Below are positions 7,103-47,630 of a stretch of 64,000 nt of DNA, one piece after another. A model generated the notes under the pieces. It ran no database searches, was not told where the DNA came from, and saw nothing but the letters and a program-made list of their open reading frames with translations. The stretch's first letter is position 1. Every line of letters begins with the position of its first letter. The position numbers and the translations under genes are program-made. This DNA is from Candidatus Magasanikiibacteriota bacterium (lineage in GTDB: Bacteria > Patescibacteriota > Patescibacteriia > Magasanikbacterales > UBA922), in contig DOYU01000021.1 of NCBI GenBank assembly GCA_003518365.1, positions 492 through 64,491 of the forward strand, read 5' to 3'.

Positions 7103-7239
7103 GAAATACCTCAGTGTGAATGCGACCATTCGTCAACGTACGGGACCACCCCGCACGTAAACGTATCAATCACATCCACATGACGTTGATCTTTCAAACG
7201 TATGATACCATACGTTTGACAGTAAAAAATAGCAGAAAA

Positions 7240-7376
7240 AACAATTTTGTCAAGTGTCCAAATAAAAAATTGCCTCATATTAGCAATTTCAAATATTTTT
7301 CAAAAGTGAAGCGAAGCGGCCGGCGCAGCGCTGCAACTCCGAAGAGTGCGCGCCACGCCGGTCGCAAGGTGAGAGA
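7240..7376. repeat. Duplicated 3'-flank segment of the lipoprotein cassette, copy b
   Basis: ACAATTTTGTCAAGTGTCCAAATAAAAAATTGCCTCATATTAGCAATTT...GCGGCCGGCGCAGCGCTGCAACTCCGAAGAGTGCGCGCCACGCCGGTCGC. Confidence 0.6.
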
Positions 7377-19488: not shown

Positions 19489-20856
19489 TTACATTAAATG
19501 CATATCTTCTATCTCACTCCTCTTTCCCTTCAGCACAATCTCTTCTATATGATACGCACCATTTCTCGGCGCATTGAGAAAGCCACTCATGGCAGCCTCA
19601 GCCAGCCAGCCGGATTCGAGCCAGTCAAAGAGCCATTCGTGTGTAAACGCCGGATCTTCTTGTTCAAATCCTGCATTCACGGCATGAAGCCAGGCCTTAT
19701 TGTATTCTTCTTGCGACCCAATTGTTGGTGCGATAATGATCGGAATACCAAGGCCGGCGTAAAATGACAATTCACTCGGCTTTGTCCAAAGAATATCTGT
19801 GGTGCGGAGTACTTCGTTAAATTGTGAAAAATAATCCAGCTTATGTTTTGCAAACATAATATTCACCGTACCACCAAGATGTTTTTCGAGATGAAGTTCT
19901 TTTACTTTTTCATCATAAAATCGATACACATCATTGCGTGAACCAGCGACAAGATTGAGACGAACAGTTCCTTTTTCTATATGTACACGCAAACTTTCGA
20001 GAATCGTGACTCCCACATCTCGCTGAGCACCAGCACCACCGACAGCGAAGGTAATGGTCAATGGATGTTTTGCATTCAAATTGCAATACTGCTTGCCGAG
20101 GTAGGTATGCAACGTGCTTTCGTATTTTTTTTGATATTTTCCATGCGGATCGAGATTGCCAATACGACACCCAAGATCTTCTTTGAGTGTTTTGATAGTC
20201 TTCCCCCCAATATTTTCTTTTGGTAATGGAAATCCTGTCACAAAAATATTTTTTTCTTTCACCCCATACAGCATGAGACGCTGTTTTACTCGCTTTGTAG
20301 GTGCAAAGTACTGAATTCTACTTTTTTCAGGATGAAGCGGAGCCCAGGCACGACTAATATCCGTATCTGTACACAAGCAAAAAATGTCCCCTTTGTATCC
20401 ATGCTCTTCGGCAAAAAATGCCGTGATGAAAAAGGACGTGACAAATGGTTTTGGATCTTCATTGAGCACCTCTATAAGATGTTTCCCCCACCCTTTTGAA
20501 ATCATCTTATAAATTTGTTTGAGCTGAAGTGATGGCGCTGACAAATCTCTCTTTGGATAAAATGGTTTGATCCGCTGGACATAGTCCATGATATCAAAAA
20601 TCGGCTGGCCAATGAGCGGAATCTTTTTCATACGAGAAATAGTCTCGTACACTTTTTGATTATTTTCCCACGTTCGTTTGTCTTTTTTGGGAATACCGCC
20701 GTAATTGTTTGCCGTGATGATCCCAGCTTGTTGCCACCCTACCGGGCAGGCAGCCATATCTTTCAATGGATATACCGCCCGCTGATGTCCGTATCCCATG
20801 TCTACTGTGACAATATAGGCCTCTTTGTTTGATTGTGGTGTTTTTTTCGTTGCCAT
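19489..20856 (-). CDS. GT-B fold glycosyltransferase (MGDG-synthase/UgtP/MurG-like)
   Basis: N-terminal VDMGYGHQRA resembles the G-x-GH-x-x-A motif of MGDG synthase/GT28. Size about 455 aa. ORF track start at 20946 trimmed to MATKKTPQS at 20856. Confidence 0.45.
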   Translation of the reverse strand: MATKKTPQSNKEAYIVTVDMGYGHQRAVYPLKDMAACPVGWQQAGIITANNYGGIPKKDKRTWENNQKVYETISRMKKIPLIGQPIFDIMDYVQRIKPFYPKRDLSAPSLQLKQIYKMISKGWGKHLIEVLNEDPKPFVTSFFITAFFAEEHGYKGDIFCLCTDTDISRAWAPLHPEKSRIQYFAPTKRVKQRLMLYGVKEKNIFVTGFPLPKENIGGKTIKTLKEDLGCRIGNLDPHGKYQKKYESTLHTYLGKQYCNLNAKHPLTITFAVGGAGAQRDVGVTILESLRVHIEKGTVRLNLVAGSRNDVYRFYDEKVKELHLEKHLGGTVNIMFAKHKLDYFSQFNEVLRTTDILWTKPSELSFYAGLGIPIIIAPTIGSQEEYNKAWLHAVNAGFEQEDPAFTHEWLFDWLESGWLAEAAMSGFLNAPRNGAYHIEEIVLKGKRSEIEDMHLM

Positions 20857-20956
20857 AGCGAGTATGAATAGTATATCACAAAAATTATTCTGCTCACATG
20901 GCGAGTCTTGATTTTTTCGTGTATATTGAGTATTATAGCGAAGCAAAAAAAGATGG

Positions 20957-21013
20957 GCTTGTCCTGCCTTTCGCGAAAGGCGGAGCGCGTCCCTCCCTTC
21001 ACGAAGGGAGGGA
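20957..21013. repeat. Direct repeat A1 with palindrome (GCTTGTCCTGCCTTTCGCGAAAGGCGG) plus hairpin TCCCTCCCTT-CACG-AAGGGAGGGA
   Basis: The core CCTTTCGCGAAAGG is a perfect palindrome. A near-identical copy lies at 21323-21353 on the other side of the GIY-YIG ORF. Confidence 0.6.
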
Positions 21014-21047
21014 TATATCGTATAGTGTGTATCAAACAGGAGGGGCT

Positions 21048-21296
21048 ATGTTCTATACCTACCTATTGCAAAGTACAAAGGACAACAATTTTTATATTGG
21101 ATCAACGACGGATTTAAAAAGAAGATTCACCGAACATAACGATGGGAAAGTTTCTTCAACAAAATTTCGTCGTCCAATGAAATTGGTATATTACGAAGCC
21201 TATCCAGAAGAACATCTGGCACGAGTACGCGAACAAAAATTAAAAGATTTTGGTTCAGCATACACAGCACTATTAAAAAGATTAGGGTATAAATAA
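21048..21296 (+). CDS. GIY-YIG nuclease-domain protein (UPF0213-like, 82 aa)
   Basis: MFYTYLLQSTKDNNFYIGSTTDLKRRFTEHNDGK...TKFRRPMKLVYYEAY. SD AGGAGG upstream. ORF track start at 20898 trimmed. Confidence 0.8.
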   Translation: MFYTYLLQSTKDNNFYIGSTTDLKRRFTEHNDGKVSSTKFRRPMKLVYYEAYPEEHLARVREQKLKDFGSAYTALLKRLGYK

Positions 21297-21322
21297 TATA
21301 GATATATAGTACGTTGTATAGT

Positions 21323-21353
21323 GGCTTGTCCCTGCCTTTCGCGAAAGGCGGGA
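21323..21353. repeat. Direct repeat A2 (GGCTTGTCCCTGCCTTTCGCGAAAGGCGGGA)
   Basis: Second copy of the palindrome-containing repeat; together the two copies bracket the GIY-YIG gene. Confidence 0.6.
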
Positions 21354-21410
21354 TAAATACTGTGGTCTTCAAAAGAAGATGAGGCAAACAAAAAAATGCA
21401 TATACATACA

Positions 21411-21482
21411 TGGGCGCATCGTATAGTGGTAGTACATTGGTCTCCAAAACCAATTGCGTGGGTTCGATTCCTACTGCGCCTG
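21411..21482 (+). tRNA. trnW: tRNA-Trp (anticodon CCA)
   Basis: Manual cloverleaf: acceptor GGGCGCA/TGCGCCT, anticodon stem TTGGT/ACCAA, loop CTCCAAA, T-loop TTCGATT. No encoded 3' CCA. Confidence 0.8.
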
Positions 21483-21538
21483 CACTGGAAAACATACCAA
21501 AAATAAGGTATGTTTTTATAGATAATAGAATAAACGAT

Positions 21539-21973
21539 ATGAAAAAAATAACCATCTCCCCCATGCCGACAATAGATTTTCTCTACATATTTTTTGCAGG
21601 TCTTTTGGGGGCAATCAGCTTCGGCATTGTATTTGGACTCATTGGTCTCTTGTTTGCAGATTATCTCGGCTTTCCACTCGCGGTAGGATCTGAAGAATTT
21701 ATGATGGGAGCTAGCATGATCTTCTACAGTACGCTTGCAATACCAGTCGGCGCATATATTGGATGCCTCAAAACTGCAAAATATTTATCATATACAACAA
21801 AAGACCTATACTCTTATTTTACAGGGTTTGTCCTTATTGCGATTGGATTATTTTTGAAAGATTATGTAAGTGTCTATTCATTGCTAGCATTCGGTGCAGT
21901 CAGTGCATTGGTCTTTGCAATGGTAATGGGGGTCTCTGCAAGCAAATCACAAAAGTCTGACATGACAAAATAG
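21539..21973 (+). CDS. hypothetical 4-TM membrane protein (144 aa)
   Basis: MKKITISPMPTIDFLYIFFAGLLGAISFGIVFGLIGLLFADYLG... hydrophobic. The ORF track start at 21410 overlaps the tRNA and was trimmed. Confidence 0.45.
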   Translation: MKKITISPMPTIDFLYIFFAGLLGAISFGIVFGLIGLLFADYLGFPLAVGSEEFMMGASMIFYSTLAIPVGAYIGCLKTAKYLSYTTKDLYSYFTGFVLIAIGLFLKDYVSVYSLLAFGAVSALVFAMVMGVSASKSQKSDMTK

Positions 21974-22176
21974 GTCAAATCGATTTAATCGTTATTCATA
22001 TCCAGCCCCAAGCTGAATTTTGAAGTATCGTTCCAAGTGCGTCTCACAACGCATGCTAACAAGATAAGACTTACCCTAGTCTTATTTTTTTTACCAAAAA
22101 TTGGATAATGTTTCTATAATAATATACTATATATGATAATCAAGAATATATTATTCAAGATTAATAGATATAGATT

Positions 22177-22827
22177 ATGTATAGAAAAGGAGAAGTCATA
22201 GGTGTCGGGAATGACAAACGCATATATGCTGACGCAATAACTCCTGAGACAAGAGTTATTGCTGAATTTCGCAAGGAACAAACACCTGAAGAAATAAAGA
22301 GTGTGTACTATCTTGGGAACATAGCTCATATATTATTCCCTCAAAATGTACCCAAAGTATATGAAGCAGGGATGCATCCACAAGAACATACGAAAGTAGA
22401 AAGAAAAAAGGTGGATGTCAATCATAAAAATACGGCTGATCTCATGGTGACATACGAAGATTATTTCATGGGAGATGGTGAAACGGGACCTTCTTCAGAA
22501 GAAGATAGTGAGATGGATGTAGATATAGAAAAAAAAGAAACCGATCCAAGAGTAAAACAACTTTTAACAAAAGCGTCTTCTGTCGGATTATATTTTGATA
22601 CAGGCGGACAAAATTTTTCTTTTGACGATTTGGGTACTGTCCAATATCTTGAAGTGAATCCAGCATTTCATATAGAAAAAAACCACGTCCGTTTGCACTT
22701 CAACGAAAGCAAATTAAGAGATGCCATACAAGCATTAGAAAATGAAAAAGAGAAAAAAAAGGCTACACTATATTTCGAACGATTGATGTCTTTGATCCAA
22801 GTAGCACAAAATAATCTTATACAATAG
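22177..22827 (+). CDS. hypothetical protein (216 aa), no recognisable family
   Basis: Complete ORF followed by the terminator at 22917-22946. Acidic middle segment (SSEEDSEMDVDIEKKETD). Confidence 0.4.
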   Translation: MYRKGEVIGVGNDKRIYADAITPETRVIAEFRKEQTPEEIKSVYYLGNIAHILFPQNVPKVYEAGMHPQEHTKVERKKVDVNHKNTADLMVTYEDYFMGDGETGPSSEEDSEMDVDIEKKETDPRVKQLLTKASSVGLYFDTGGQNFSFDDLGTVQYLEVNPAFHIEKNHVRLHFNESKLRDAIQALENEKEKKKATLYFERLMSLIQVAQNNLIQ

Positions 22828-22916
22828 TTCCAACTTCCTCCTTCCTCTACGATCCCCTGCACCTCCTGCAGTAGCTCCTGCCGGCAGGCAGGTTAGCGAA
22901 GGCACGGCACTTGAAA

Positions 22917-22946
22917 AACAGAGTGAAAAACACTCTGTTTTTCTTT
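22917..22946 (+). terminator. Rho-independent terminator
   Basis: AACAGAGTG-AAAAA-CACTCTGTT perfect 9-bp stem followed by TTTTCTTTTT. Confidence 0.7.
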
Positions 22947-22975
22947 TTGACATGAAGGGAAGAACGGAGTATTGT
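22947..22975 (+). promoter_or_regulatory. promoter candidate for the defence operon (TTGACA-17-TATTGT)
   Basis: -35 at 22947-22952, -10 at 22970-22975, directly after the terminator and 28 nt before the XRE gene ATG. Confidence 0.4.
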
Positions 22976-23002
22976 ACAAGTAAACATATACATTATATTG
23001 GT

Positions 23003-23212
23003 ATGGCTCATCAAAAAAATACAATCGGAAAAAACATCAAACGATTACGGCAAGAACAAAAAATTTCCCAAGATCGTCTTTCAAAACTTGCGGATCTTTC
23101 TTTGAATACTATTGTTACCGTTGAAAGTGGCGCAAACGAAAATCCTACTATTGATACGCTCACAAGGATTGCGAAAGCGTTTCAAGTTGGCGTGGATGAC
23201 CTCATAACATAA
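23003..23212 (+). CDS. XRE-family helix-turn-helix transcriptional regulator (69 aa)
   Basis: MAHQKNTIGKNIKRLRQEQKISQDRLSKLADLSLNTIVTVESGANENPTIDTLTRIAKAF is a classic HTH_3. ORF track start at 22952 trimmed. Its size and position resemble R-M controller (C) proteins. Confidence 0.8.
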   Translation: MAHQKNTIGKNIKRLRQEQKISQDRLSKLADLSLNTIVTVESGANENPTIDTLTRIAKAFQVGVDDLIT

Positions 23213-23220
23213 CACCCACT

Positions 23221-24198
23221 ATGTCTAAACAAACACCTACCAATAATCTCGCTATCTACCAAGCTAAAAACGGCGCGATTGAATTTCGCGGTGATTTTGA
23301 GCAAGAGACGGTTTGGGGAAATTTAAATCAAATTGCCGATCTTTTTGGTCGCGACAAGTCCGTTGTTTCCCGCCATATAAAAAACATCTATAAAACAGGC
23401 GAATTAAACGAAACGGCAACTGTTGCAAAAATTGCAACAGTTCAAAAGGAAGGAAGGAGAGAAGTGATGCGTGAAATTGAGTACTTCAACCTTGATGTTA
23501 TTTTGTCCGTTGGGTACAGAGTAGATTCCAAGCAAGCCACGCAATTCCGCAAATGGTCAACGCAAGCGCTCAAGGCACACCTTGTAGACGGGTATACCAT
23601 CAACAAAAAACGCATCGGTAATAACTACGAACACTTTTTGCGTGCAGTGGCAGAAACAAAAGCACTCCTCCCTGTGGGCAACAAGGTTTCTACCGAGGAT
23701 ATACTTGAACTCGTGAACGCATTTGCTGCTACGTGGTTTTCGCTCGATGCATATGACAAAGACGCATTTCCTCAAAAAACAGCCTCAAAAAAGTCAGTTT
23801 CAGTTGACACTGTAAAGCTACTCAATGCGATTGGTGAGTTGAAGCAAGAACTGATAACCAAAAAGCAAGCAACAAACCTATTTGCACAAGAAAGGAAGAC
23901 GGGAACAGTAGAAGGAATCGTCGGAAATGTATTTCAGTCTGCCTTTGGCAAAGATGTATATCCAAGTATAGAAGAAAAGGCCGCACACATCCTCTACTTC
24001 ATGGTAAAAAATCATCCATTCACCGATGGCAACAAGCGCAGCGGAGCCTTTGCATTTGTTTGGTTTCTACGAAAAGCTGGTTTACTCCGACCAAGTCTTA
24101 CTCCAGAAGCGTTGACTGCCATTACCCTCCTCATTGCAGAGAGTAATCCAAAAGATAAAGACAAAATGGTGGGACTAGTGGTGATGTTAATCAAATAA
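23221..24198 (+). CDS. RhuM-family / Fic-DOC-like protein
   Basis: N-terminal NLAIYQAKNGAIEFRGDFEQETVW...KIATVQKEGRREVMREIEYFNLDVILSVGYRV is the RhuM signature. C-terminal HPFTDGNKRSGAF matches the Fic/Doc motif HxFx(D/E)GNxR. Confidence 0.7.
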   Translation: MSKQTPTNNLAIYQAKNGAIEFRGDFEQETVWGNLNQIADLFGRDKSVVSRHIKNIYKTGELNETATVAKIATVQKEGRREVMREIEYFNLDVILSVGYRVDSKQATQFRKWSTQALKAHLVDGYTINKKRIGNNYEHFLRAVAETKALLPVGNKVSTEDILELVNAFAATWFSLDAYDKDAFPQKTASKKSVSVDTVKLLNAIGELKQELITKKQATNLFAQERKTGTVEGIVGNVFQSAFGKDVYPSIEEKAAHILYFMVKNHPFTDGNKRSGAFAFVWFLRKAGLLRPSLTPEALTAITLLIAESNPKDKDKMVGLVVMLIK

Positions 24199-24200
24199 CT

Positions 24201-25322
24201 ATGGCAAATAAAAACCTTACAAAAGCAAAAAAGGCAAAAAATGATGAATTTTATACTCAATTTTCAGATATTCAAAAAGAAGTTGAGTCTTATCTTGAGT
24301 ATAACCCAGATACTTTTAAAGATAAGATAATTTACAGTAATTGTGACGACCCGTTCGAAAGTAATTTCTTTCGCTATTTTGTATTAAATTTTGATCGTTT
24401 AGGACTAAAGAGACTTATTTCAACGAGCTACAAACCCTCACCTGTTGCCAATACGCAACTGGGATTATTTGGCGATGACAAAACACTTGAAAAAGTAAAA
24501 GGCCGTCCAAAAGTAACCGCTAACAAATTCATCATCAACGAAGTTGGCGATATCGACGGCGACGGCTCTTTTACGCTAGAAGATATTGCCCAACAGCTTC
24601 GAGCGAATAAAAATAACGAATGGACTCCGCTTGAGGGCGATGGTGATTTTAGAAGTGCCGAATGTGTCGAGTTGCTCAAACAATCTGACATCGTAGTTAC
24701 TAATCCTCCATTTAGTTTATTCCGTGAATATATTACGCAACTTTTCGAACACAAAAAGCAATTTCTAATTATTGGTAGCATGAACTCAATTACTTACAAA
24801 GAAATCTTTGTGTTGATTAAAAATAATAAATTGTGGTTAGGTAATGGGTTTAATGCTGGCAATGCATATTTTTCAACTCCCAATGCGCGAAAAGATTTTG
24901 CTTCTGGTGTGTATGATGAAAAAACTGGTCTTGTAAAATTTCGGAATTGTCATTGGTTTACTAATTTAGATCATGGTCGTCGTCATCAGCCTCTTAATCT
25001 GATGACAACAAATGAAAACCTAAGATTTAATAAAAAAATGCAAGGCAAAACTACTTATGATCGTTATGACAATTATGACGCTATTGATGTACCATTTACA
25101 AAAGCTATCCCTTCTGACTACGAAGGAGTAATGGGTGTTCCTATAAGCTTTCTCGATAAGTACAATCCTAATCAGTTTGAGATATTGGGCTCTGACACAG
25201 ACATAAAAGAAGGTAAACTTCCACTTTTAATAATAAGTAAATGGAATGGAAAGCTAGACAGAGGTTATATACATGGAAAGAGAATCTTCAGTAGAATGTT
25301 TATTAAGCACAAAAAGAAATAA
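24201..25322 (+). CDS. N6-adenine DNA methyltransferase, M.EcoRI-like family
   Basis: Collinear with my recollection of M.EcoRI: [17 protein letters not shown]..., [48 protein letters not shown] (NPPF catalytic motif IV), [39 protein letters not shown]. Low GC. Confidence 0.8.
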
Positions 25323-25323
25323 T

Positions 25324-26487
25324 ATGAAAACAACCTTAAAAAATGATATCACCGTTAAAGAAGTTTGCGACGGCTTTGAATACAACGAATTTGAAGGAAA
25401 AGGTTTGTTTGGTCTCTCTGGCAAACTAACTATTCAGCCAGAGTATCAGCGTAATTATATTTATGCTGACGGCAAACGTGACGTTGCTGTAATTGACTCA
25501 ATTTTAAAGGGTTATCCTATCGGTTTGATCTATTTCAATCAGGCTGGTAAAGACGAGTTTGAAGTATTAGATGGTCAACAGCGCATCACGAGTATAGGTC
25601 GTTTTGTTACTGGCAAATTTGCTGTTAAAGATAAAAACGGTCACGAGCAATACTACAGCGGTATGTCTGAGAGTCAGCGTGAGCAAATTATGAAGACTAA
25701 GTTGTTGGTGTATGTGTGCGAAGGTGACGAGCCTGAGATCAAAGATTGGTTCAAGACTATTAACATTGCTGGAGTGCCATTAACTGAACAAGAGATTCTT
25801 AACGCGGTATATTCTGGGCCATTCGTTACTCGAGCTCGTGAAGAGTTTAGTAATAGTCAAAATACCAACATCCAGAAATGGAGTGCGTACATCGCAGGTG
25901 ATATCAAGCGTCAGGCATACTTGGAACGAGCTCTAGATTGGGTTTCTGATGGATCAATCGATAGTTATATGAGCAAACACCGCAATGACAAAAATATTAC
26001 TGAACTAAAAAAACATTTTGATACTATCATTGACTGGGTCTCAACTATCTTTACTGACGTTGAGAGCGATATGAAAGGCCTTGAGTGGAACAGGATTTAT
26101 GAGACATATCACAAGAAGAAATACAATCCGACTACCATCTCTGCTTCTGTTCAGAAGCTCTATGCTGATGGTTTCGTAAAAAGTCGCAAAGGCATTTTTG
26201 AATATGTTTTAGGCGGAGAAGTTGAAACTAAACTACTTGAAATACGAGTATTTGAGGACTCAACAAAACGTTCAGTTTACGAAGCTCAAACTGCTATTGC
26301 AAAGAAAAAAGGTGTTTCAAACTGTCCACATTGTGCTATTGGGCATGATGCCAATAAAGAAAAAATTTGGACTTTAAGCGATATGGATGCTGATCATGTG
26401 GCTGCTTGGAGTAAAGGTGGAAAAACGGAAGCAAAAAACTGTGAGATGTTGTGTAAAACGCATAATCGTGCCAAAGGTAATCGGTAA
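25324..26487 (+). CDS. DUF262 (ParB-like) plus C-terminal HNH nuclease, GmrSD-like
   Basis: [13 protein letters not shown] (DGQQR motif of DUF262). C-terminal CPHCAIGHD...[32 protein letters not shown] is an HNH motif. Its ATG lies 1 nt after the methyltransferase stop. Confidence 0.75.
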
Positions 26488-26493
26488 AATATT

Positions 26494-27987
26494 ATGCACC
26501 TCACAAAAACCGACTATCTCGAATATACCTTTTGCAAAAAGAACCTTTGGCTCAAAAAACATAAGCCAGAGCTTTTTGAAGATGTAGAATTGTCGGAATT
26601 TGAAAAAAAAATTATTGAGGAAGGGAATTTGGCTGATGAGGCTGCAAGAAATTTATTTCCTGATGGAGAATTGATCGGTATCGTCGGAGTAAATGCTATA
26701 CCTGTTACAAAAAAGATACTGGAGAAAAACCCACCAGTATTATTTCAAGGTGCATTTTCATTCAATGACTTTTTTGTTCAAGCGGATATTTTACGTTACA
26801 ACGACATTTTAAAGGGTTGGGAACTTTACGAAGTAAAAGCAACAAATGATGTAAAACGAGAAATCCCTCATCACCATATCAACGACCTTGCGTTTCAAAA
26901 AATTGTAATTGAACAAAATGGGATACACATTATAAAAGCAGGCGTTATTCACCTTAACGGCGAATATAGACAACGAGGCAAAGTAAACTATAACGAACTG
27001 TTCATCATTGCCGAGCTTACTGATGAAGTACTAGAAGCGGAAGAACTTGTACGTGGGCAGATGCGTGATATTCACACATATATGGACATGGCAGAAGAAA
27101 AAAATTGTGAATGTTTGTATCGAGGTAGAAATGCACAATGTACAACGTTCGCTTACTCTAATCCTGAAGTGCCTGAATACTCTGTTCACGATATCAATAG
27201 AATTGGCGGAAGCAAAAAACTGTTTTTTGACTGGATAGATAGAGGGATCTACCGGCTCGAAGATATAGATAACCCAGAAAATCTTACAGGATCAAAAAAG
27301 GCACAATATACTGCGTACATAACAGGTAAGCCTCTCATAGACAAAGAAGCAATACAAAAAGAACTTGGTGAATTGGTTTTTCCTCTCCAATTTTTTGATT
27401 ACGAAGGATATTCTAGTGCTATCCCCAGCTTTAACGGCTTCGGTGCGTATGAACAAGTGCCTTTTCAATATTCACTACATACGCTCCATGAAGACGGAAC
27501 GCTTGAACACCGAGAATATCTCATCACAGAGCCAGAGAATGATTTGACTTTGCCATTGGTAGAAAGAATGAAAGAAGACTTTGATGATGTTGGTACTGTC
27601 ATATCTTGGTACAAATCATACGAATCACAACGAAACGACAAACTAGCAGAACTTCATCCAAATCATGCAGACTTTCTTATTGGCCTCAATGACAGAATGT
27701 TTGACCTCATGACAATGTTTTCCAAAAATTATTATGTGGATGCACGGTTCAAAGGGAGTGCAAGCATAAAAAATGTTCTGCCGGTCATTGTACCGGAATT
27801 AACGTACAAAGTACTTGGTATTCAAAAAGGAGATCAAGCAGTAGAACGTTGGGAAAAAATGATATTTGCAGATATTCATCCAGATGAAAAGAAAGAAATA
27901 AAAAAAGATTTGCTTGAGTATTGCAAATTGGATACTTTGGCGATGGTGAGGATTTGGGAGTTTCTAATGAAAATAAAAAATGTATGA
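26494..27987 (+). CDS. DUF2779-family protein (PD-(D/E)xK RecB/Cas4-like N-terminal nuclease-like domain)
   Basis: N-terminal LTKTDYLEYTFCKKNLWLKKHKPEL and central FDYEGYSSAIPSFNGFGAYEQVPFQYSLH match DUF2779 hallmarks from memory. D...QADIL...YEVKAT is a D/ExK-like motif. Its stop overlaps the SIR2 start (ATGA). Confidence 0.6.
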   Translation: MHLTKTDYLEYTFCKKNLWLKKHKPELFEDVELSEFEKKIIEEGNLADEAARNLFPDGELIGIVGVNAIPVTKKILEKNPPVLFQGAFSFNDFFVQADILRYNDILKGWELYEVKATNDVKREIPHHHINDLAFQKIVIEQNGIHIIKAGVIHLNGEYRQRGKVNYNELFIIAELTDEVLEAEELVRGQMRDIHTYMDMAEEKNCECLYRGRNAQCTTFAYSNPEVPEYSVHDINRIGGSKKLFFDWIDRGIYRLEDIDNPENLTGSKKAQYTAYITGKPLIDKEAIQKELGELVFPLQFFDYEGYSSAIPSFNGFGAYEQVPFQYSLHTLHEDGTLEHREYLITEPENDLTLPLVERMKEDFDDVGTVISWYKSYESQRNDKLAELHPNHADFLIGLNDRMFDLMTMFSKNYYVDARFKGSASIKNVLPVIVPELTYKVLGIQKGDQAVERWEKMIFADIHPDEKKEIKKDLLEYCKLDTLAMVRIWEFLMKIKNV

Positions 27988-29219
27988 ATATGCACAGCCC
28001 TCTTTCTTCAATTCAACAACTACAATCAATATTAAGTAGTCCTTCGAAAAAAATCGGATTCCTTTTTGGGGCTGGAATTTCAATGGAAAAAAAAGATAAG
28101 AGTGATTTGGTGGTAGGAACTGATGACAAAAAAGATGAGAACGGTAATGTAATAAAAGAAGGAATGACAAGTCTCGCAATTAAAAATTTATCAGAGGAAC
28201 AAAAAAAAGCTGTAGATTTAATAAAGAATGAGGTTGAAACAGAAAATAAAAAATTTAACATCGAAAGTCTCTTATCAAAAATTTCTGAAAAAGAAAGAGC
28301 TGTTGGCGATCAAGAGCTTTGTGGTTTAACAAAAGAAAAATTATTAAATTTGAGAAAGGATATACAGGATAAAATAAGAGATTTGGTTTCCGTACATAGG
28401 GTGGATGATAAAGAAATTGATATTGAGGCATTAAATCACAGCACATTTGCTCAATGGATTAGTAATGCTGATAGAGAATTCTCAGTAGAAATTTTTACAA
28501 CAAATTACGATTATCTACTAGAACTAGCACTTGAAAAACAAGGAATTCCCTATTTCGATGGTTTTGTGGGTAGTTATGAAGCATTTTTTTGCCCTGAATG
28601 GATTGAAGATGACACGCCTGTCAAAAATTGGGTAAAGCTATGGAAATTACATGGTTCACTTGGTTGGGCACAGAATAGTAAAAAAGAAATAATTAGAACA
28701 TCTGGTAATACCGGTGCGGCGATGATATACCCTTCATTTTTGAAATATGACCATTCCAAAAAACAGCCATACTTGAGCTATATGGATAGATTGTCCGATT
28801 TTTTAAAGCAAGAAGATTCTGTCTTATTTGTTTGTGGTTATTCATTTGGAGATGAACATATAAATGAAATAATTTTGACAGCACTTACGCACTCTCGCTC
28901 ATCACATGTATTTGTGTTGAAAAATGGAGAAATGGAAAAATCTAGCCATCTTTCAAAAGAAATTGCACAAAAAAATTCTAGAATTTCAGTTTATGCAAAA
29001 CGTACCTGTATTATTGGAGGTAAATTTGGAGAATGGAAGCTCGATAGAGAACCAGACAGAAATGAATCCTACAACATATTAGATTATGCTTTTGATGAAG
29101 ACGCTACACCTGATGGAGTACCATGGACAGGAAGAGGTGATTTTCGTCTTGGAGACTTTAAAAAATTTACGGAGTTTTTAGAGCTTTTCTACCATAATTC
29201 GAGATATATCAATAAATGA
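27984..29219 (+). CDS. SIR2-like (SIR2_2 family) NAD+-binding defence protein
   Basis: GFLFGAGIS, FTTNYDYLLE and KLHGSLGW motifs. ORF track start at 27921 trimmed to the ATG at 27984, which overlaps the DUF2779 stop. Confidence 0.8.
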   Translation: MNMHSPLSSIQQLQSILSSPSKKIGFLFGAGISMEKKDKSDLVVGTDDKKDENGNVIKEGMTSLAIKNLSEEQKKAVDLIKNEVETENKKFNIESLLSKISEKERAVGDQELCGLTKEKLLNLRKDIQDKIRDLVSVHRVDDKEIDIEALNHSTFAQWISNADREFSVEIFTTNYDYLLELALEKQGIPYFDGFVGSYEAFFCPEWIEDDTPVKNWVKLWKLHGSLGWAQNSKKEIIRTSGNTGAAMIYPSFLKYDHSKKQPYLSYMDRLSDFLKQEDSVLFVCGYSFGDEHINEIILTALTHSRSSHVFVLKNGEMEKSSHLSKEIAQKNSRISVYAKRTCIIGGKFGEWKLDREPDRNESYNILDYAFDEDATPDGVPWTGRGDFRLGDFKKFTEFLELFYHNSRYINK

Positions 29220-29220
29220 C

Positions 29221-30999
29221 ATGAGAAATAAAGAGACATTTATAGGTAAAGTGAGAAGTGTCACAGGTAGTACGCTTGCTATTGAGTTACACGAAGATAT
29301 TAGATCAACGTTACCTATTATTGATGGGATATTATATAGAATTGGACAAATTGGTTCTTTTATAAGAATTCCTTTTGGTTATGTTGATTTATATGGAGTA
29401 ATTACACAAGCTGGATCAGACGCTATACCAGAAAAATTAGCGGAGCAAGAGGGTTTGAAAGGATCTCGCTGGATTAAGGCTACTCTTATTGGAGAAAGGG
29501 TCGGTAATAGATTTGAAAGAGGGGTGTTGCAATTTCCTATTGCTGATGACGAAGTTCATTTGGTCACGAAGGATGATTTGGAATTGATATATGGTGGAAT
29601 TGATGAATCAAAGTCAATAGTAGTTGGACAGGTCAGTGCCTCTGAAAATCTGTCAGCAAGAATAGATATAGACAGATTAATTAATAGACATTGCGCCATA
29701 CTTGGCTCTACAGGAAGTGGAAAATCAAATACAGTTTCTGTAATACTAGAAGCAATTGCTTCTAGACATCATGATGATGAAAATATAAAAAGTACGAGAA
29801 TTCTTTTGGTCGACCCTCATGGTGAGTATGGCGATATTTTAAAAAATTATAGTCAAATATTTAAGTTAGGAGCAGACTTGTCAAAAGGAGAAAAAGAACT
29901 AGTTGTTCCATATTGGGCTTTACCTTTTCAAGAATTTATAAAAAGTTTTCCAGGTAATCTAACTGAAAAGCAGGAAGAGTACATACGTGAAGAAATTCTA
30001 CAAAGAAAGATTAAGGCTTCTAAAAAATTAAATCCTATTCCACAAGAGGAGGCAATTACAGCTGATAGCCCTATCCCTTTCAGTATTAAACAACTATGGT
30101 TTGACCTTATTGATATAGAGCAAAAAACTTTTAATAACAAGGAGTTAACCGAAGTCGCACTCGAATCACTAGGCGATCCTGAGGCACTTAAGCCTAACAA
30201 ATACTCCATAGCGTCAACAAATAATACAGCCCCTTTCAGTAATAACAGGGTTGCGCAGGGTATTTCAAGTTTTTTAAACTTAATGCGGAATAGAATTTTA
30301 GATCAAAGATTTAAGTTTTTATTCAAACTAGACACGCTCTCTCCTGGTATTGACGGAACTATTTCAAGTGATTTAGACAGTCTCATTGAAAGTTGGATTG
30401 GGACAGAGAAACCAATAACTATTTTAGACCTATCGAGTATACCCTCTGAAATCATGGGTTCAATTTCTGGTTCTTTGCTTTCAATAATTTATGAATTTCT
30501 ATATTGGGGACAGAATGAAGATGTGGGAGGTCGCCAAACACCTATTCTGTTTGTACTAGAAGAGGCACATAATTATCTAAAGTCAGGCGAGAATTCTATT
30601 GCCTCAAGAACTGTACAAAAAATTGCAAAAGAGGGTAGAAAATATGGTTCAGGTTTACTACTCGTAACCCAACGACCTTCTGAACTGGATGATACTGTTT
30701 TGAGTCAATGTGGTTCAGTTATCGCGTTGAGAATGACAAATTCTAGCGATAGAGGCCACGTAAAGAGTGCTGTCGAGGATTCCCTAAACGAGTTAGTTGA
30801 TTTGCTTCCGAGCCTAAGAACAGGTGAAGGTTTAATTATGGGTGAATGTGTAAAATTACCTATGCGAACTAAATTTTCTAAAACTAGGGAATCTAAAAGT
30901 ACAGACCCACTTGTTTCTAAGCAGTGGAAAACAACTCTTCCAGAATCCTCTAACTATAATAAAGTTTTAGAAAATTGGAGAAATAATAAATTTTCTTAA
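29221..30999 (+). CDS. HerA-like (DUF87/FtsK-HerA) ATPase; partner of SIR2 (SIR2-HerA/Nezha-type defence)
   Basis: Walker A AILGSTGSGKSN, Walker B ILFVLEEAHNY, N-terminal HAS-barrel-like region. The ATG at 29221 is 1 nt after the SIR2 stop. Confidence 0.8.
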   Translation: MRNKETFIGKVRSVTGSTLAIELHEDIRSTLPIIDGILYRIGQIGSFIRIPFGYVDLYGVITQAGSDAIPEKLAEQEGLKGSRWIKATLIGERVGNRFERGVLQFPIADDEVHLVTKDDLELIYGGIDESKSIVVGQVSASENLSARIDIDRLINRHCAILGSTGSGKSNTVSVILEAIASRHHDDENIKSTRILLVDPHGEYGDILKNYSQIFKLGADLSKGEKELVVPYWALPFQEFIKSFPGNLTEKQEEYIREEILQRKIKASKKLNPIPQEEAITADSPIPFSIKQLWFDLIDIEQKTFNNKELTEVALESLGDPEALKPNKYSIASTNNTAPFSNNRVAQGISSFLNLMRNRILDQRFKFLFKLDTLSPGIDGTISSDLDSLIESWIGTEKPITILDLSSIPSEIMGSISGSLLSIIYEFLYWGQNEDVGGRQTPILFVLEEAHNYLKSGENSIASRTVQKIAKEGRKYGSGLLLVTQRPSELDDTVLSQCGSVIALRMTNSSDRGHVKSAVEDSLNELVDLLPSLRTGEGLIMGECVKLPMRTKFSKTRESKSTDPLVSKQWKTTLPESSNYNKVLENWRNNKFS

Positions 31000-31010
31000 T
31001 TATTAAACAT

Positions 31011-31223
31011 ATGGAAAGAAAACCAGTACAATCATCAAATCTTGCTGCTATTGGATATGATCCTTTGACAGAAACTTTGGAGGTGGAATTCACAGATGGG
31101 TCTGTCTATGAGTATAAGAACGTCTCTCAATTTATATACGATGAGCTGATGAATGCTTCGTCTCATGGTTCTTATTTTAATAGAGAAATCAGTAAAAGTT
31201 TTCCGTATGAGAAAATAGGTTAA
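31011..31223 (+). CDS. KTSC-domain protein (70 aa)
   Basis: SSNLAAIGYDPLTETLEVEFTDGSVYEYKNVSQFIYDELMNASSHGSYFNREI is the canonical KTSC domain. Confidence 0.75.
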   Translation: MERKPVQSSNLAAIGYDPLTETLEVEFTDGSVYEYKNVSQFIYDELMNASSHGSYFNREISKSFPYEKIG

Positions 31224-31235
31224 ATATGAAATAGG

Positions 31236-31290
31236 ATTGTTTGAGGGAGGGGCAATTCTCCTTTTTGATTCCCCTCTTCCCCCTCCCCCA
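31236..31290. repeat. G/C-rich inverted repeat TTGAGGGAGGGG...CCCCTCTTCCCCCTCCCCC at the island's distal edge
   Basis: GAGGGAGGGG pairs with CCCCTCTTCCCCCTCCC around an AATTCTCCTTTTTGATT loop. Terminator-like, and compositionally similar to the GAGGGG/CCCCTC motifs at 5504 and 38741. Confidence 0.45.
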
Positions 31291-31401
31291 AACCAGAAAT
31301 AGAAGTTTTGAATGAATAGAATTAATTGGATACAATTGGACGTAGTTAATATATCCAAAAACCAATAATCTGTTATACTTTCATAGAAGTATCATTCTCA
31401 C

Positions 31402-33249
31402 ATGAAACATTCAACATTCCACTATCATCTATCACGTATGACCCTCCTCTTTCTCATACTGATCCCCATCCTCATCATTATTGTGGGGATGTATGTTTTC
31501 TTTTGGAAAAACGCTGTACCAACAGGAGAACAATTTGTGACCGTATGCTCGGATGAAGATGTGTCGTGCCACCCGACGAATCTCCCGTATCAAGATGCAA
31601 CACTTCCGACTCAGGAACGAGTTGTTGATTTGCTCGGCAGGATGACTCTGGCAGAAAAAATAGGACAAATGGCACTTGTTGAAAAAAATAGTATTAAAAA
31701 CAACAATGACATTGCAACGTATGGACTTGGTGCCATTATGAGTGGTGGTGGAGGAAAACCCACTGACAATAGTCCTACAGGTTGGAAAGACATGATACAG
31801 TCATTTCAAACAAAGAGCCAAACAACACGTCTTCAAATTCCCCTCTTGTATGGCGTGGATGCAAATCATGGACATGGCAATGTACCAGGAGCAACAATTT
31901 TTCCACACGCTATCGGACTTGGCGCGACAAACAACGCGGAACTCGTAAAAAATATTGCAAAAGCAACCGCACAAGAAGCAGAAGCGACTGGCGTTAATTG
32001 GATATTTTCTCCAAATCTTGACGTGACAAACGATGTCAGATGGGGACGAACGTATGAGACGTTTGGTTCAAACACAGAAACCATCGCTAAACTTGGACAA
32101 GCATCTATAGAAGGTATGAACACGGTGCCGACGATGCTTGCGGGCGCAAAACACTTTATCGGGAATGGTGCGACCGAGTGGGGATCATCTGAAAACAAAA
32201 ATTTTTTTATCGACCAAGGCAATGCTTCTGTATCTGAAGAAGAATTGCGAAAGACGCATCTGATACCCTTTATCTCCGCCATTGATGCTGGAGCCAAATC
32301 AATTATGATTGGTCTCAATCAATGGAACAATGAAAAAATTATATTTCACACATATCTTATACAGGATGTATTAAAAGGTAAGCTTGGATTTGACGGATTT
32401 GTCTTCTCAGACTGGTATGGCGTATACGAGGGGGAATCAAATAAATCAACAGCACTCATCAGTGCCATCAATGCTGGCGTAGATATGGTGATGCTTCCCT
32501 ATGATTACACACAATTCTCTCGTATCATGCACCGCGCCGTACAAAATGGCGATATTTCAGAAGCACGGATTGATGATGCTGTGACGAGAATTCTCACGGT
32601 AAAATTTGATAAAGGACTTTTTGATACAACACCAACAAACGTCTCAGACCTCGACATCGTCGGATCAAAAGAACACAAAGATCTTGCACGAATTGCAGTA
32701 CAACAATCTCTGGTGTTGTTAAAAAATAAGAACGTCCTTCCCCTCTCTAAAAAAGTGAATTCCATATTTATAGCAGGATCGAGCGCAGATAATATTGGAA
32801 GACAATCTGGTGGGTGGACAGTAGAGTGGTCTGGTATTGATGGAAATTGGATCCCCGGAACGACGATATTGGAAGGAATAAAAAACACCGTATCCCCTAC
32901 CACGAATATTCAATATGACATGCAGGGATCATTTCCAACACAAACAGAAAAAGCAGATGTTGGTATTGCGATTGTAGGAGAAATGCCGTATGCAGAAGGC
33001 TGGGGAGACAATGCACACCCATCACTTTCTGAAGAAGATATCAATACTATTGAAGCATTGAAAGCACAGAGTAAAAAAATTGTAGTGATTATTGTTTCTG
33101 GTCGTCCGCTTGATATTGCCCCATATATTGACGAGTGGGATGCCGTTGTGGCCGTATGGCTTCCTGGTTCTGAAGGAATGGGAATTGCAGATGTTCTGTT
33201 TGGAGATGTTTCATTCACAGGGAAACTTCCTATTGAGTGGACATGGTAA
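31402..33249 (+). CDS. glycoside hydrolase family 3 (beta-glucosidase / beta-hexosaminidase-like) with N-terminal TM anchor
   Basis: GH3 N-domain motifs GVDANHGHGN and GFDGFVFSDWYGV (nucleophile Asp), C-domain GKLPIEW. TM MTLLFLILIPILIIIVGMYVFFW. Confidence 0.8.
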   Translation: MKHSTFHYHLSRMTLLFLILIPILIIIVGMYVFFWKNAVPTGEQFVTVCSDEDVSCHPTNLPYQDATLPTQERVVDLLGRMTLAEKIGQMALVEKNSIKNNNDIATYGLGAIMSGGGGKPTDNSPTGWKDMIQSFQTKSQTTRLQIPLLYGVDANHGHGNVPGATIFPHAIGLGATNNAELVKNIAKATAQEAEATGVNWIFSPNLDVTNDVRWGRTYETFGSNTETIAKLGQASIEGMNTVPTMLAGAKHFIGNGATEWGSSENKNFFIDQGNASVSEEELRKTHLIPFISAIDAGAKSIMIGLNQWNNEKIIFHTYLIQDVLKGKLGFDGFVFSDWYGVYEGESNKSTALISAINAGVDMVMLPYDYTQFSRIMHRAVQNGDISEARIDDAVTRILTVKFDKGLFDTTPTNVSDLDIVGSKEHKDLARIAVQQSLVLLKNKNVLPLSKKVNSIFIAGSSADNIGRQSGGWTVEWSGIDGNWIPGTTILEGIKNTVSPTTNIQYDMQGSFPTQTEKADVGIAIVGEMPYAEGWGDNAHPSLSEEDINTIEALKAQSKKIVVIIVSGRPLDIAPYIDEWDAVVAVWLPGSEGMGIADVLFGDVSFTGKLPIEWTW

Positions 33250-33262
33250 ACAGTGTTTTTCT

Positions 33263-41210: not shown

Positions 41211-42287
41211 CTACGCGAAGCCACGAACCTTCAGCTCGTGTCGAACCTGGTCTCCTACCAAGATCGGTGGGTAGAGGCTATCAATCGCAGCCAGGTGGTC
41301 CTCATTGAGGCCTTCCAAGAACATCGGTAATGGGCGAAGCATGTGATCCGATCGGAAATGAACAAAGAATGTGGACGACACACTGACCAACGGCCATCCC
41401 TCTTGTTCGGAATACTCCATCGCTTTAATGGTCTCTGGTAGGGAGACAACCTCGCTGAAGCTTGCCAAAAGCTTACCCCCGGTAAGCCACTCGAGCTGCT
41501 GTCCGACCTGCACGAGGAGCCAGCCATCAGGCACACAAACCTTCTTCGGCTGTCCGTCGGGGCCCCAGATAATGAGCCCTGGAAACCGAGACTTGCCGTG
41601 GATCGTCAATGCGTTCAAATCCGTATTGAAGGCATTGATGATCGTGTCCTTCTTGCCATGTTCTCGAAGGTTCACACCACTCGGAACCAGGAGATGTGGG
41701 GCTTTTTTCAACAAACGAGAGAAGGTATCACGTTTGAGCCCCTGTGCCAGCGCAAGCATTTCACAGACCGTACGAGCGGTCTCCAGCATCTTCTCTCCCA
41801 ATGCGTCCATCGTGCTGGCCCACTCATTCTTGAATCCGCTCGGGATTACCCGATCAGCGGCGTTCTGCACAGGAAAGGCGGTGGACGCCGGACGCTCACC
41901 AATAGGCCAGGAAAAACGCTCTCCCGGATCTCCCTTACAGTTGCAGGGCGTCACATAAGGGCGATATTCAGGCGGCATGCGGGCGATGAAACCACGATAA
42001 TCAGGAGGGCGCTCAATGTACGGTGGAGAAACTCCCACATGATAGCCCAGATCCGGTCGTTGATCATGGACCCGATCTTTGTAGGGGTTGCCGAAGTAAT
42101 CCTCAAGCATGTTCAGGTATCTTTCGTTGTCACTCGGCAAAATCCGCGGATCGCGCACAAAAACTGCTGAGTGCTGCTTCAACGATTTGAAGAGTCTCCT
42201 GGCCTGCGACATGTCGTGTTTCAATCCCTTCCTGCCTACAAATGTGGACAAGTGGACATATGGAATACCCAACGCCCCGTATCGCAT
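41211..42287 (-). CDS. 2OG-Fe(II) oxygenase / isopenicillin-N-synthase-like fold protein, visibly high GC
   Basis: Architecture NTDLNALTIHG...GLIIWGPDGQ...WLLVQVGQQLEWLTGGKLLASFSEVV parallels HxD...G-LQV...HRV, but with Asn and Ser-Glu-Val in place of the expected His residues. G/C-rich codons. The start may instead be 42212. Confidence 0.4.
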   Translation of the reverse strand: MRYGALGIPYVHLSTFVGRKGLKHDMSQARRLFKSLKQHSAVFVRDPRILPSDNERYLNMLEDYFGNPYKDRVHDQRPDLGYHVGVSPPYIERPPDYRGFIARMPPEYRPYVTPCNCKGDPGERFSWPIGERPASTAFPVQNAADRVIPSGFKNEWASTMDALGEKMLETARTVCEMLALAQGLKRDTFSRLLKKAPHLLVPSGVNLREHGKKDTIINAFNTDLNALTIHGKSRFPGLIIWGPDGQPKKVCVPDGWLLVQVGQQLEWLTGGKLLASFSEVVSLPETIKAMEYSEQEGWPLVSVSSTFFVHFRSDHMLRPLPMFLEGLNEDHLAAIDSLYPPILVGDQVRHELKVRGFA

Positions 42288-42471: not shown

Positions 42472-43065
42472 ATGAACAAACATATTCTCGTTTCATTGTC
42501 TTTTTTATCAGTAGCTCTGGTAATTTCTGGTTGTGGAAATAACACAACTACACCCAATGCTTCTGATACAGGTACAGAGCCAGGTCAAGAACGATTTGGG
42601 AATAATCCAAATGCTCCACAAACTCAGGCTGATATTGTGGGTATTGTGAAATCTATGGTTGGGAATGAAGTGACCATTACTCAAATCGATATGGACAAAA
42701 TGCGTGAGGCAATGGCTGCCAGTAGGCCAGATAGCCAACCTGCAACGGGTGAGGAAGGAAGGAGTAATAATTTTGTCGCAGGAACAGGACCAGGTATGGG
42801 ACCGGGGGGCGGTATGGGTCCTGGTGGTGGTATGGGACCAGATGGTGCCAATATTGATAGTGAAGAAAGAAATCAAGCACTCTCTGACATGATGAAAGAA
42901 TATAGTGCAGGAGACGTAAAAGTAATACTTCCTGTAGGGATTGCGATGAACCGTCGTGGGGAAACAGCAAGTTTAGCTGATGTTGCTGTTGGTGCCAATC
43001 TTTCTATTTGGTTAAATACGTCAGTCAGTGACAAAAAAGTAGCTGAGTATGTAAGTATTAGATAA
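42472..43065 (+). CDS. lipoprotein with a Gly/Met/Pro repeat
   Basis: Signal plus lipobox LVISGC. The (GMGPGG)x3 repeat is PGMGPGGGMGPGGGMGPDG. Confidence 0.6.
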   Translation: MNKHILVSLSFLSVALVISGCGNNTTTPNASDTGTEPGQERFGNNPNAPQTQADIVGIVKSMVGNEVTITQIDMDKMREAMAASRPDSQPATGEEGRSNNFVAGTGPGMGPGGGMGPGGGMGPDGANIDSEERNQALSDMMKEYSAGDVKVILPVGIAMNRRGETASLADVAVGANLSIWLNTSVSDKKVAEYVSIR

Positions 43066-43066
43066 T

Positions 43067-44905: not shown

Positions 44906-44916
44906 GACTGAATGGT

Positions 44917-45627: not shown

Positions 45628-45685
45628 TTTTTTGTGAATATACTAGGTAAAAAATTAGAGTTTACGAGGATCATTTGTTGAACGT

Positions 45686-46894: not shown

Positions 46895-46914
46895 CACATT
46901 TTGATTGATGTATA

Positions 46915-47030: not shown

Positions 47031-47036
47031 TTTTAT

Positions 47037-47354: not shown

Positions 47355-47359
47355 ACCAT

Positions 47360-47620: not shown

Positions 47621-47630
47621 AAACACAGTT

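Follow-up and report, generated by a model that had tools for sequence, protein, structure and literature searches.

An integrase-free, strain-variable defence locus between tRNA-Trp and a glycoside hydrolase gene in groundwater Magasanikbacteria

The window analysed here is a 64,000-nucleotide (nt) stretch of contig DOYU01000021.1 (positions 492 to 64,491) from the chromosome of a Rifle-aquifer (groundwater) Candidatus Magasanikbacteria, a bacterium belonging to the CPR (candidate phyla radiation) with a genome of about 1 Mb. Counterparts with exactly matching proteins occur, for example, in GCA_000998635.1, contig LCDM01000008.1. Between a tRNA-Trp gene and a family 3 glycoside hydrolase (GH3) gene lies an island of defence genes, 21484-31230, with a G+C content (GC) of 36.6% against 43.9% for the rest of the window. 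GC drops from about 0.44-0.47 to 0.32-0.38 across 21-31 kb, the lowest value of any 9.7-kb segment outside the island is 0.397, and GC at third codon positions (GC3) is 0.23-0.34 in most island genes compared with 0.41 +/- 0.06 in background open reading frames (ORFs; n=29). The low-GC block of about 10 kb starting at tRNA-Trp, described in an earlier note on this DNA, was thus found again with windowed GC and GC3; the GH3 gene forms its right flank. At least 23 contigs, the longest of 275 kb, show the same arrangement; they stem from several assemblies and samples, and the copies are almost clonal.

Downstream of a left module of two genes the island consists of an operon of eight plus-strand genes in three stacked modules, XRE with RhuM-Doc, a methylase and a nuclease with DUF2779, and SIR2-HerA-KTSC (Table 1). 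Spacing from gene to gene along the operon is 8, 2, 1 (or, with the alternative start, an overlap of 50 nt), 6, a 4-nt overlap, 1 and 11 nt. The gene list of the earlier note (XRE, RhuM with Fic, EcoRI_methylase, DUF262 with HNH, DUF2779, SIR2_2, HerA, KTSC and the upstream GIY-YIG gene) was reproduced with Pfam and PADLOC, and the proposed defence content agrees with full-length matches to the PADLOC models for type II restriction-modification (RM), SIR2-HerA and PDC-S23. The operon itself was also recovered, but its size was corrected from seven genes plus KTSC to eight, KTSC being the third gene of the SIR2-HerA module. Junctions of 8 nt or less, or overlapping, hold for the seven genes first listed, while HerA and KTSC are 11 nt apart. 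No match to an integrase, transposase or recombinase family is on record for the called genes of the window at about 12.9-43.2 kb, that is, about 10 kb on either side of the island (precomputed Pfam tables of the source contigs), as had been claimed.

Table 1. Features of the locus from the GIY-YIG cassette to GH3, in window positions
Feature	Position	Strand	Evidence	Role or occurrence
Degenerate tRNA-Trp 5'-end copy split by two G/C-stem palindromic hairpins	20946-21047	+		Left flank of GIY-YIG cassette, not cargo
Small GIY-YIG nuclease gene, 82 aa	21048-21296	+	Pfam GIY-YIG E 3e-16	Ancestral tRNA-Trp neighbour, not cargo
tRNA-Trp(cca)	21412-21483	+	ARAGORN; Rfam tRNA 63.8 bits	Left anchor of hotspot
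Terminator-like hairpin directly 3' of tRNA	21484-21522	+	-13.1 kcal/mol, z = -5.2	
Small predicted membrane protein, 144 aa (136 aa from later ATG)	21539-21973	+		Variable left module
216-aa protein, minimal protein-kinase-like fold	22177-22827	+		Variable left module
Left anchor motif CTCTACGATCCCCTGCAC	22845-22862	+		Common to both cargo types and empty site
45-nt G/C-rich insert with palindrome CCTGCCGGCAGG, then strong intrinsic terminator	22863-22946	+	Fold z = -3.9	
Promoter-like TTGACA-17-TATTGT	22947-22975	+	10/12 consensus matches, consensus match only	Putative operon promoter
XRE helix-turn-helix regulator, 69 aa (ATG 23003) or 86 aa (22952)	23003-23212	+	Pfam HTH_3 E 2.6e-11	First operon gene
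RhuM N-terminal region with Doc-type Fic domain	23221-24198	+	PADLOC candidate PDC-S23; Pfam RhuM and Fic	
EcoRI-family N6-adenine DNA methyltransferase	24201-25322	+	Pfam EcoRI_methylase E 3e-127; PADLOC MTase_II 354 bits; NPPF motif	
DUF262 (GmrSD_N) and HNH restriction endonuclease	25273 (or 25324)-26487	+	PADLOC REase_II PDLC03418, 295 bits, full length; DGQQR and HNH motifs	
DUF2779: Cas4-like PD-(D/E)xK nuclease with RNase H-like 3'-5' exonuclease domain	26494-27987	+	Pfam DUF2779 E 1e-34, weak Cas4 matches	
SIR2-family NADase effector (predicted)	27984-29219	+	PADLOC SIR2 PDLC04093 359 bits; Pfam SIR2_2 E 1e-21; TTNYD and KLHGS motifs	
HerA-type hexameric ATPase (predicted)	29221-30999	+	PADLOC HerA PDLC04105 500 bits; Walker A GSTGSGKS, Walker B LFVLEEAH	SIR2 partner, 1-nt gap to SIR2
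KTSC-domain protein, 70 aa	31011-31223	+	Pfam KTSC E 1e-25	Third gene of SIR2-HerA module
Right-end segment, purine/pyrimidine-rich tract	31231-31360	+	Junction alignments	Common to both cargo types, not in empty site
Family 3 glycoside hydrolase (GH3)	31402-33249	+	Pfam Glyco_hydro_3, Glyco_hydro_3_C	Right anchor gene

The comparison with related contigs shows that the locus occurs in three states. In the second state, found in L090, L091 and L092 (GH3 93.4% identical in nucleotides to that of the window, uniformly along the gene) and in L102, the cargo directly upstream of GH3 consists of an identical 86-aa XRE protein, an 86-aa RhuM N-terminal protein, a Dam-type methylase, DpnII, a second methylase, and GajA and GajB. 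The last two, with 704 bits for GajA (ATPase-nuclease) and 558 bits for GajB (UvrD-like helicase) in L090, represent a Gabija system that is not in the window. Comparison of the window with L090 by blastn gave only two shared stretches, 22843-23455 (99.3% identity) and 31231-33260 (93.4%). Because nothing else is shared, the 7.8 kb at 23456-31230 are replaced in L090 (900-7379) by 6.5 kb of other defence genes. The left breakpoint, 23455/23456, lies inside the RhuM-Doc gene, and from 31231 onwards the two cargo types are homologous again. The shared head of 613 bp comprises the terminator, the promoter, the XRE gene and the 5' end of the RhuM gene.

The third state is an empty site, L103 (GH3 80% identical), which has the anchor motif, a 38-nt hairpin and the GH3 promoter region and from which the operon is absent. 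The left module is variable too, since L102 opens with what resembles the 3' end of tRNA-Trp (matching the tRNA-Trp ends of L022 and L035 at 12 of 13 positions) and continues right after it with another gene pair, of weak similarity to HicA, in place of the membrane protein and 216-aa protein genes.

Among 69 relatives in GTDB, the gene order of the glycosyltransferase (window 19489-20946), EamA and GH42-like genes is kept, and none of the 69 has island genes beside it. The tRNA-Trp flank differs in these relatives, so that the flanks of the island are not conserved across species or genus. In L009, L051 and L052 GIY-YIG is followed by tRNA-Trp, then by 4-6.5 kb of other genes and the glycosyltransferase gene, all on one strand, and in the lineage of the window this order is broken by a rearrangement whose breakpoint lies between 20946 and 21048. 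One and the same gene block in all relatives, which would have spoken against the reading of the earlier note, was not found: L090 and L102 have other cargo, L103 is an empty site, and the 69 GTDB relatives are without the block beside the glycosyltransferase gene.

These observations make it close to certain that the locus is a strain-variable, horizontally acquired defence locus. The region is an ordinary defence hotspot with core flanks and no integrase, holding known systems, and as such is of a known kind. Probably it is a chromosomal hotspot between tRNA-Trp and GH3, confined to one species-level group of Magasanikbacteria, in which independent modules are stacked and the cargo is swapped by homologous recombination at the anchors. 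Such turnover, which we infer from divergence patterns in metagenome contigs, is the best reading of the data. Composition, gene content, the second cargo type, the empty site and the common anchors are observations, whereas the biochemical activities of all modules are predicted from characterised homologues (Doc kinases, type II RM and SIR2-HerA). The higher identity of the shared head than of the GH3 flank is a recombination signature. Similarly, L102 and L090 are 100% identical over 8 kb and then fall to 84-77% from about 360 nt into GH3, and in L084 the bins of the right flank from 33.5 kb have 10-27 mismatches per 500 nt, compared with three substitutions in the 9.7-kb island. Incoming DNA would recombine at the tRNA, at the 613-bp terminator-promoter-XRE-RhuM head and at GH3, and no recombinase encoded by the element would take part in the exchange. 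The DNA could enter by natural transformation, by analogy with the competence shown for another CPR lineage (PMC10633639). The acquisition route, previously regarded as unclear, is thus still without an integrase, but it is not wholly obscure, as anchors and divergence point to replacement of cassettes by homologous recombination.

Comparable loci are the core defence hotspots cDHS1 and cDHS2 of Pseudomonas aeruginosa, which lack mobility genes and for which homologous recombination has been proposed (PMC10250203), and hotspots in E. coli without a detectable mobile element (PMC10121019). Core hotspots share with the present locus the fixed flanks, strain-variable stacks of defence genes, deviant GC, the lack of identifiable mobility genes and the proposed recombination across the flanks. 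The present locus differs in its CPR host of about 1 Mb, in its far smaller size of 7-10 kb, in its restriction to a narrow clade, in the 613-bp head that serves as an internal anchor and in the breakpoint within RhuM.

Several points weigh against this interpretation. All relatives are metagenome contigs, in which mosaic identity can also come from chimeric assembly of strains. Contigs L090 and L102 stop at the tRNA or close to it, and the full left flank of the alternative type is never on one contig; L103 shows 95 nt upstream of the anchor, and its link to tRNA-Trp is unproven. The window's own copy of the anchor is split by the 45-nt G/C-rich insert, and its likeness to the tRNA is not significant alone (p=0.17). 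Junction alignments of the island ends gave neither a target duplication nor inverted ends, which leaves the original insertion without a recognisable mechanism. In Magasanikbacteria with GH3 homologues of 58-62% identity the gene stands in unrelated contexts, and because synteny is lost at this level the hotspot is local to one narrow clade. Finally, the SIR2 and HerA proteins score far under the NCBIfam equivalog cutoffs (SIR2_antiphage 78.7 bits with a cutoff of 500, HerA_antiphage 271 with a cutoff of 850), and for this reason their activity is an extrapolation from distant homologues.

A decayed integrative element, inserted by a tyrosine integrase at the 3' end of tRNA-Trp with later loss of the integrase and fixation of the cargo, is unlikely, although the island lies on the 3' side of the tRNA, a classical integration site, and resembles tyrosine-integrase tRNA islands in its low GC and accessory cargo. 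The anchor motif occurs once in the window and, among the fetched loci, at this locus alone. It may derive, as a degenerate repeat, from the 3' end of tRNA-Trp. In L103 the motif with its flank, GCCTGCACAGGAAAACAT, matches the tRNA end and flank of the window at 17 of 18 positions (p<0.002), and the copy in L102 has a weaker likeness (p=0.02). In favour of such an element, a short tRNA-derived repeat (GCCTGCAC with the downstream terminator motif) is found at the inner boundary of the left module, clear in L103 and weaker in L102. However, the repeat at 22.85 kb bounds only the 1.4-kb left module and not the 8.5-kb operon, and could be what an old integration of that module left behind.

At the far end there is no tRNA repeat: the alignment at 31.2-31.4 kb gave p=0.16, and no 25-nt copy of the tRNA 3' end with three or fewer mismatches was found elsewhere in the window. 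The earlier statement that no tRNA-derived direct repeat was seen thus holds at 31.3 kb, but short degenerate repeats are present at 22.85 kb and around the GIY-YIG gene. The G/C-rich inverted repeat reported at 31.25 kb gave a fold like that of shuffled sequence (z = -0.06), but it does mark the place where the two cargo types become homologous again. For none of the three states of the locus is an integrase or a remnant of one on record. Unlike the att sites of tyrosine-integrase islands, the breakpoints lie in the RhuM gene, just upstream of GH3 (where 31231-31360 is shared) and inside GH3 (L102 compared with L090), and none of them is att-like.

It is quite improbable that the eight genes form one integrated system, for example one in which ends made by DUF2779 and the restriction nuclease license SIR2-HerA under control of XRE. 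The junctions of at most 11 nt or overlapping, the single promoter-like site and the single strong terminator upstream fit such a system, and in type III Sir2-HerA exposed DNA ends license the NADase (PMC13434337). Nevertheless each module is found without the others elsewhere, the methylase-nuclease pair in L056, the nuclease alone in L025 and SIR2-HerA-KTSC alone on plasmids, and the sister strain has the same XRE head with quite different cargo. Obligate coupling of the modules is hence unsupported, although there may be functional cross-talk between them, and the operon is likely a stack of separable modules.

Spread driven by the GIY-YIG nuclease, which would cut naive tRNA-Trp loci so that repair from donor DNA co-converts the island, is very improbable. 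It has in its favour a weak PHROG match of the protein to a GIY-YIG homing endonuclease (E 2e-4) and tRNA-Trp-derived repeats around the gene in the window and in three relatives. Without its two hairpins (20957-20982 and 20990-21015; fold z = -3.5) the sequence at 20946-21047 aligns to the tRNA 5' end (p<0.001, 1000 shuffles), and an anticodon-arm-like copy of tRNA-Trp lies near the gene at 21362-21373. In L009, L051 and L052 the 5' half of the tRNA has a 38-nt copy (87% identical) 348-350 nt upstream of the genuine tRNA, and GIY-YIG stands between the two. The cassettes (window 20946-21411, L051 5813-6235, L052 3031-3454 and L009 3408-3831) therefore look, from their repeats, like one that targets the tRNA-Trp gene. 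On the other hand, the 82-aa protein consists of the catalytic domain alone and lacks one for DNA binding, there is no defined cleavage site, co-conversion of 10 kb would be unusually long for a homing tract, and relatives with the GIY-YIG and tRNA pair have no island genes downstream. Since L009, L051 and L052 keep this pair in the same order, GIY-YIG and tRNA-Trp are old neighbours and not cargo. Two identical 21-nt palindromes, CCTGCCTTTCGCGAAAGGCGG, at 20963 and 21331 bracket the gene as the earlier note had stated, but the gene belongs to an ancestral pair and not to the island.

That no horizontal transfer took place, the low GC being a local quirk or the product of assembly or binning, can practically be dismissed even though a second low-GC stretch in the window holds genes conserved in relatives, because the whole gene content of the locus is polymorphic among close relatives and the arrangement recurs in the independent assemblies, on contigs of up to 275 kb, mentioned above.

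In co-occurring groundwater strains one locus is seen with two kinds of cargo and without any, and this natural comparison offers an answer to the question of how an island can arrive without an integrase. It shows that immune genes are kept as a compact, exchangeable locus even in CPR bacteria whose genomes measure about 1 Mb. This agrees with the high defence density reported in groundwater CPR (PMC12259885). The value of the locus lies in the three-state comparison within CPR and in two leads, the SIR2-HerA-KTSC triad and the recurrence of DUF2779 at the end of restriction systems.

The third module belongs to a published anti-phage family, SIR2-HerA (PMC11472057, PMC11514289, PMC13434337), with which it shares adjacent SIR2 and HerA genes, intact catalytic and Walker motifs and full-length PADLOC matches. 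It is unlike the known systems in being highly divergent and in the conserved KTSC gene that follows. Being a divergent subtype, it is assigned to the family on the PADLOC models and the gene architecture. The start of SIR2 overlaps the stop codon of DUF2779 by 4 nt. The order SIR2, HerA, KTSC with small gaps was found in all five plasmid loci inspected (HerA 40-45% identity), from five proteobacterial genera, represented by Sulfitobacter, E. coli, Rhizobium, Bradyrhizobium and Sphingomonas (L179, L180, L183, L184 and L185), and judged by this gene order KTSC is the conserved third gene of the subtype. Coupling of HerA and KTSC comes up in one publication only, in passing and for endoDNase variants (PMC9503650). 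A 2026 scheme that classifies the Sir2-HerA systems of E. coli does not have it, and the experimental SIR2-HerA literature treats two genes. By analogy with published homologues the module would act by abortive infection, the HerA ATPase sensing infection and releasing the SIR2 NADase, and KTSC is probably a DNA-binding partner. Apparent truncation of SIR2 to a pseudogene in L076 and L084 was due to runs of N from scaffolding and not to mutations.

The second module begins with a predicted methylase that carries its catalytic motif and has a nuclease adjacent to it, as in type II RM systems. Type II RM with a control (C) protein is similar in the methylase-first pair and in a small upstream helix-turn-helix gene matching PADLOC 'Control_protein' models. 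The difference is that here RhuM-Doc stands between this gene and the RM pair, that the same helix-turn-helix gene heads another RM system in the sister strain, and that the DUF262-HNH architecture of the nuclease is more typical of type IV enzymes. Palindrome avoidance was tried as a way to the recognition site and abandoned: the 64 kb, a length that gives little power, contain 18 copies of GAATTC and 24 of CAATTG, and the depleted palindromes include neither of the two.

The last gene of the second module, DUF2779, has been described as the fusion of a Cas4-like nuclease with an exonuclease of the DEDD type (PMC13621843, PMC3985635). It is read here as the accessory of the RM pair, which would degrade the DNA ends made by restriction. 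Its homologues are unusually conserved; those with 60-94% identity to the window copy occur in several CPR phyla and in some metagenome-assembled genomes of Bacteroidetes and Firmicutes, and metagenome loci (L105-L174) have them directly downstream of type I, II, IIG, III and IV restriction genes. After deduplication to 34 loci, the upstream gene was co-oriented in 27, with a gap of at most 70 nt in 18. The two genes upstream included ResIII (10), N6_N4_Mtase (5), N6_Mtase (3), EcoEI_R_C (3), Methylase_S (2), GmrSD (2) and Eco57I (2), and the two downstream were mostly housekeeping genes. Restriction families thus make up about 27 of the 61 proteins encoded upstream, compared with 2 of the 62 encoded downstream (Fisher p = 2.6e-8), the figure of 27 being an approximate hand tally with overlapping family counts. 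Distant plasmid homologues (31-35% identity) showed no restriction link.

A role of DUF2779 as a third component of SIR2-HerA was considered and rejected, since in the 70 metagenome loci SIR2-HerA stands beside it in the window's own type and in no other. A related observation of RM adjacency concerns the solo-Cas4 families of DPANN archaea and CPR (PMC5704561), which are likewise Cas4-like nucleases outside CRISPR, over-represented in small-genome lineages and located beside RM genes. The family in the window (PF11074, DUF2779) differs in the added DEDD-type exonuclease and in a directional link, with the gene downstream and co-oriented, that extends to type I, II, IIG, III and IV systems.

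In E. coli, RecBCD degrades DNA after restriction. A tentative suggestion, to which we give less than even weight, is that DUF2779 is a dedicated, co-transferred partner of RM in small-genome bacteria, either finishing restricted DNA or serving as a conserved recombination arm for cassette swaps. In one contig of the window type (L105, 594-2000) DUF2779 has 469 instead of 497 aa (94% identity), and the neighbouring nuclease and SIR2 are 100% identical; the short form may be an in-frame deletion variant in the population.

The first module starts with the XRE gene, which also matches the PADLOC HTH_VI, capH and RM control-protein models. As the promoter-like site follows the terminator, the start of XRE at ATG 23003 (69 aa) is probable. 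The terminator scan placed this terminator, a 13-bp stem with a T run, at 22913-22943, with the promoter-like site immediately 3' of it. The 45-nt G/C-rich insert before it is not found in the empty site L103, which has a different terminator hairpin there. The RhuM-Doc protein matches PDC-S23, a family with the status of candidate defence only, with 372 bits over residues 7-325 (full length). It carries the Doc-type motif HPFTDGNKR and matches a Doc-like toxin in PHROG (E 3.6e-16), and its NCBIfam DOC_P1 score of 33.6 bits is below the cutoff of 38.65. No Phd antitoxin gene lies beside it, and the XRE gene is found upstream instead. Doc kinases are the characterised homologues on which the role of this module rests. 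Together XRE and RhuM-Doc would be toxin-like, and judging from the motif and from known Doc proteins the Doc-type kinase domain would block translation.

In the left module the 144-aa protein is predicted to be a membrane protein from reading of its hydrophobic sequence by eye, and it had no match in Pfam, NCBIfam or PHROG. The AlphaFold2 model of the 216-aa protein (pLDDT 97.2) has its best Foldseek matches in the effector kinases NleH1 (4lrj_B, E 4.7e-5) and OspG. A word-based homologue search with this protein found itself alone, while a HMMER search gave a family of about 266 clusters at 50% identity, which has no Pfam family. The gene pair that stands in place of both genes of this module in L102 (145-718, beside the tRNA; 113 and 79 aa) is located downstream of GH3 in L103 (2416-2989), with 77% nucleotide identity, and because of these two positions in two strains the pair is itself mobile. 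The label HicAB was not retained for it, as HicA scored 21 bits with a cutoff of 27 and no HicB match was found; 'HicA-like' was kept.

In the nearest GTDB species (L001, glycosyltransferase 93% identical in amino acids) a type I restriction system (HsdS, HsdR) and an XRE-SocA/Panacea gene at 268-5089 lie directly upstream of the glycosyltransferase gene. This type I system is a third kind of defence cargo in the neighbourhood. The order in relatives is tRNA-Val, tRNA-Thr, a homologue of the gene at 59937-61748, GIY-YIG, tRNA-Trp and glycosyltransferase on one strand. In the window the glycosyltransferase gene is divergent from tRNA-Trp, and tRNA-Val and tRNA-Thr are found 35 kb downstream (56651-61748 region).

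A phage origin of the cargo was rejected, DUF2779 having one match and RhuM-Doc none among 2.9 million viral contigs. An Rfam scan for non-coding RNAs gave the tRNA only. The idea that the G/C-rich elements are a genome-wide repeat family was also dropped, as the anchor motif and palindromes are confined to this locus within the window. Around the GIY-YIG gene the hairpins form a small family (window 20957-20982, 20990-21015 and 21326-21352; L051 5851-5874; z about -3 to -3.5) with a conserved centre, TTCGCGAA/TTCACGAA, and G/C stems that vary and remain complementary (CCTGCC/GGCGG, CCCTCCC/GGGAGGG, CCCCACCC/GGGTGGGG).

The second low-GC stretch of the window, 43000-49000 (0.35-0.39), contains efflux-type genes (membrane-fusion protein, ABC ATPase and permease) with homologues near the same neighbourhood in relatives. 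Because these genes are conserved, low GC alone is no proof of transfer in this genome. Two stretches are G/C-rich (0.54), 6100-7400 and 41214-42287, of which the latter, without a Pfam match on record, is a minus-strand ORF of 358 aa with a GC3 of 0.615.

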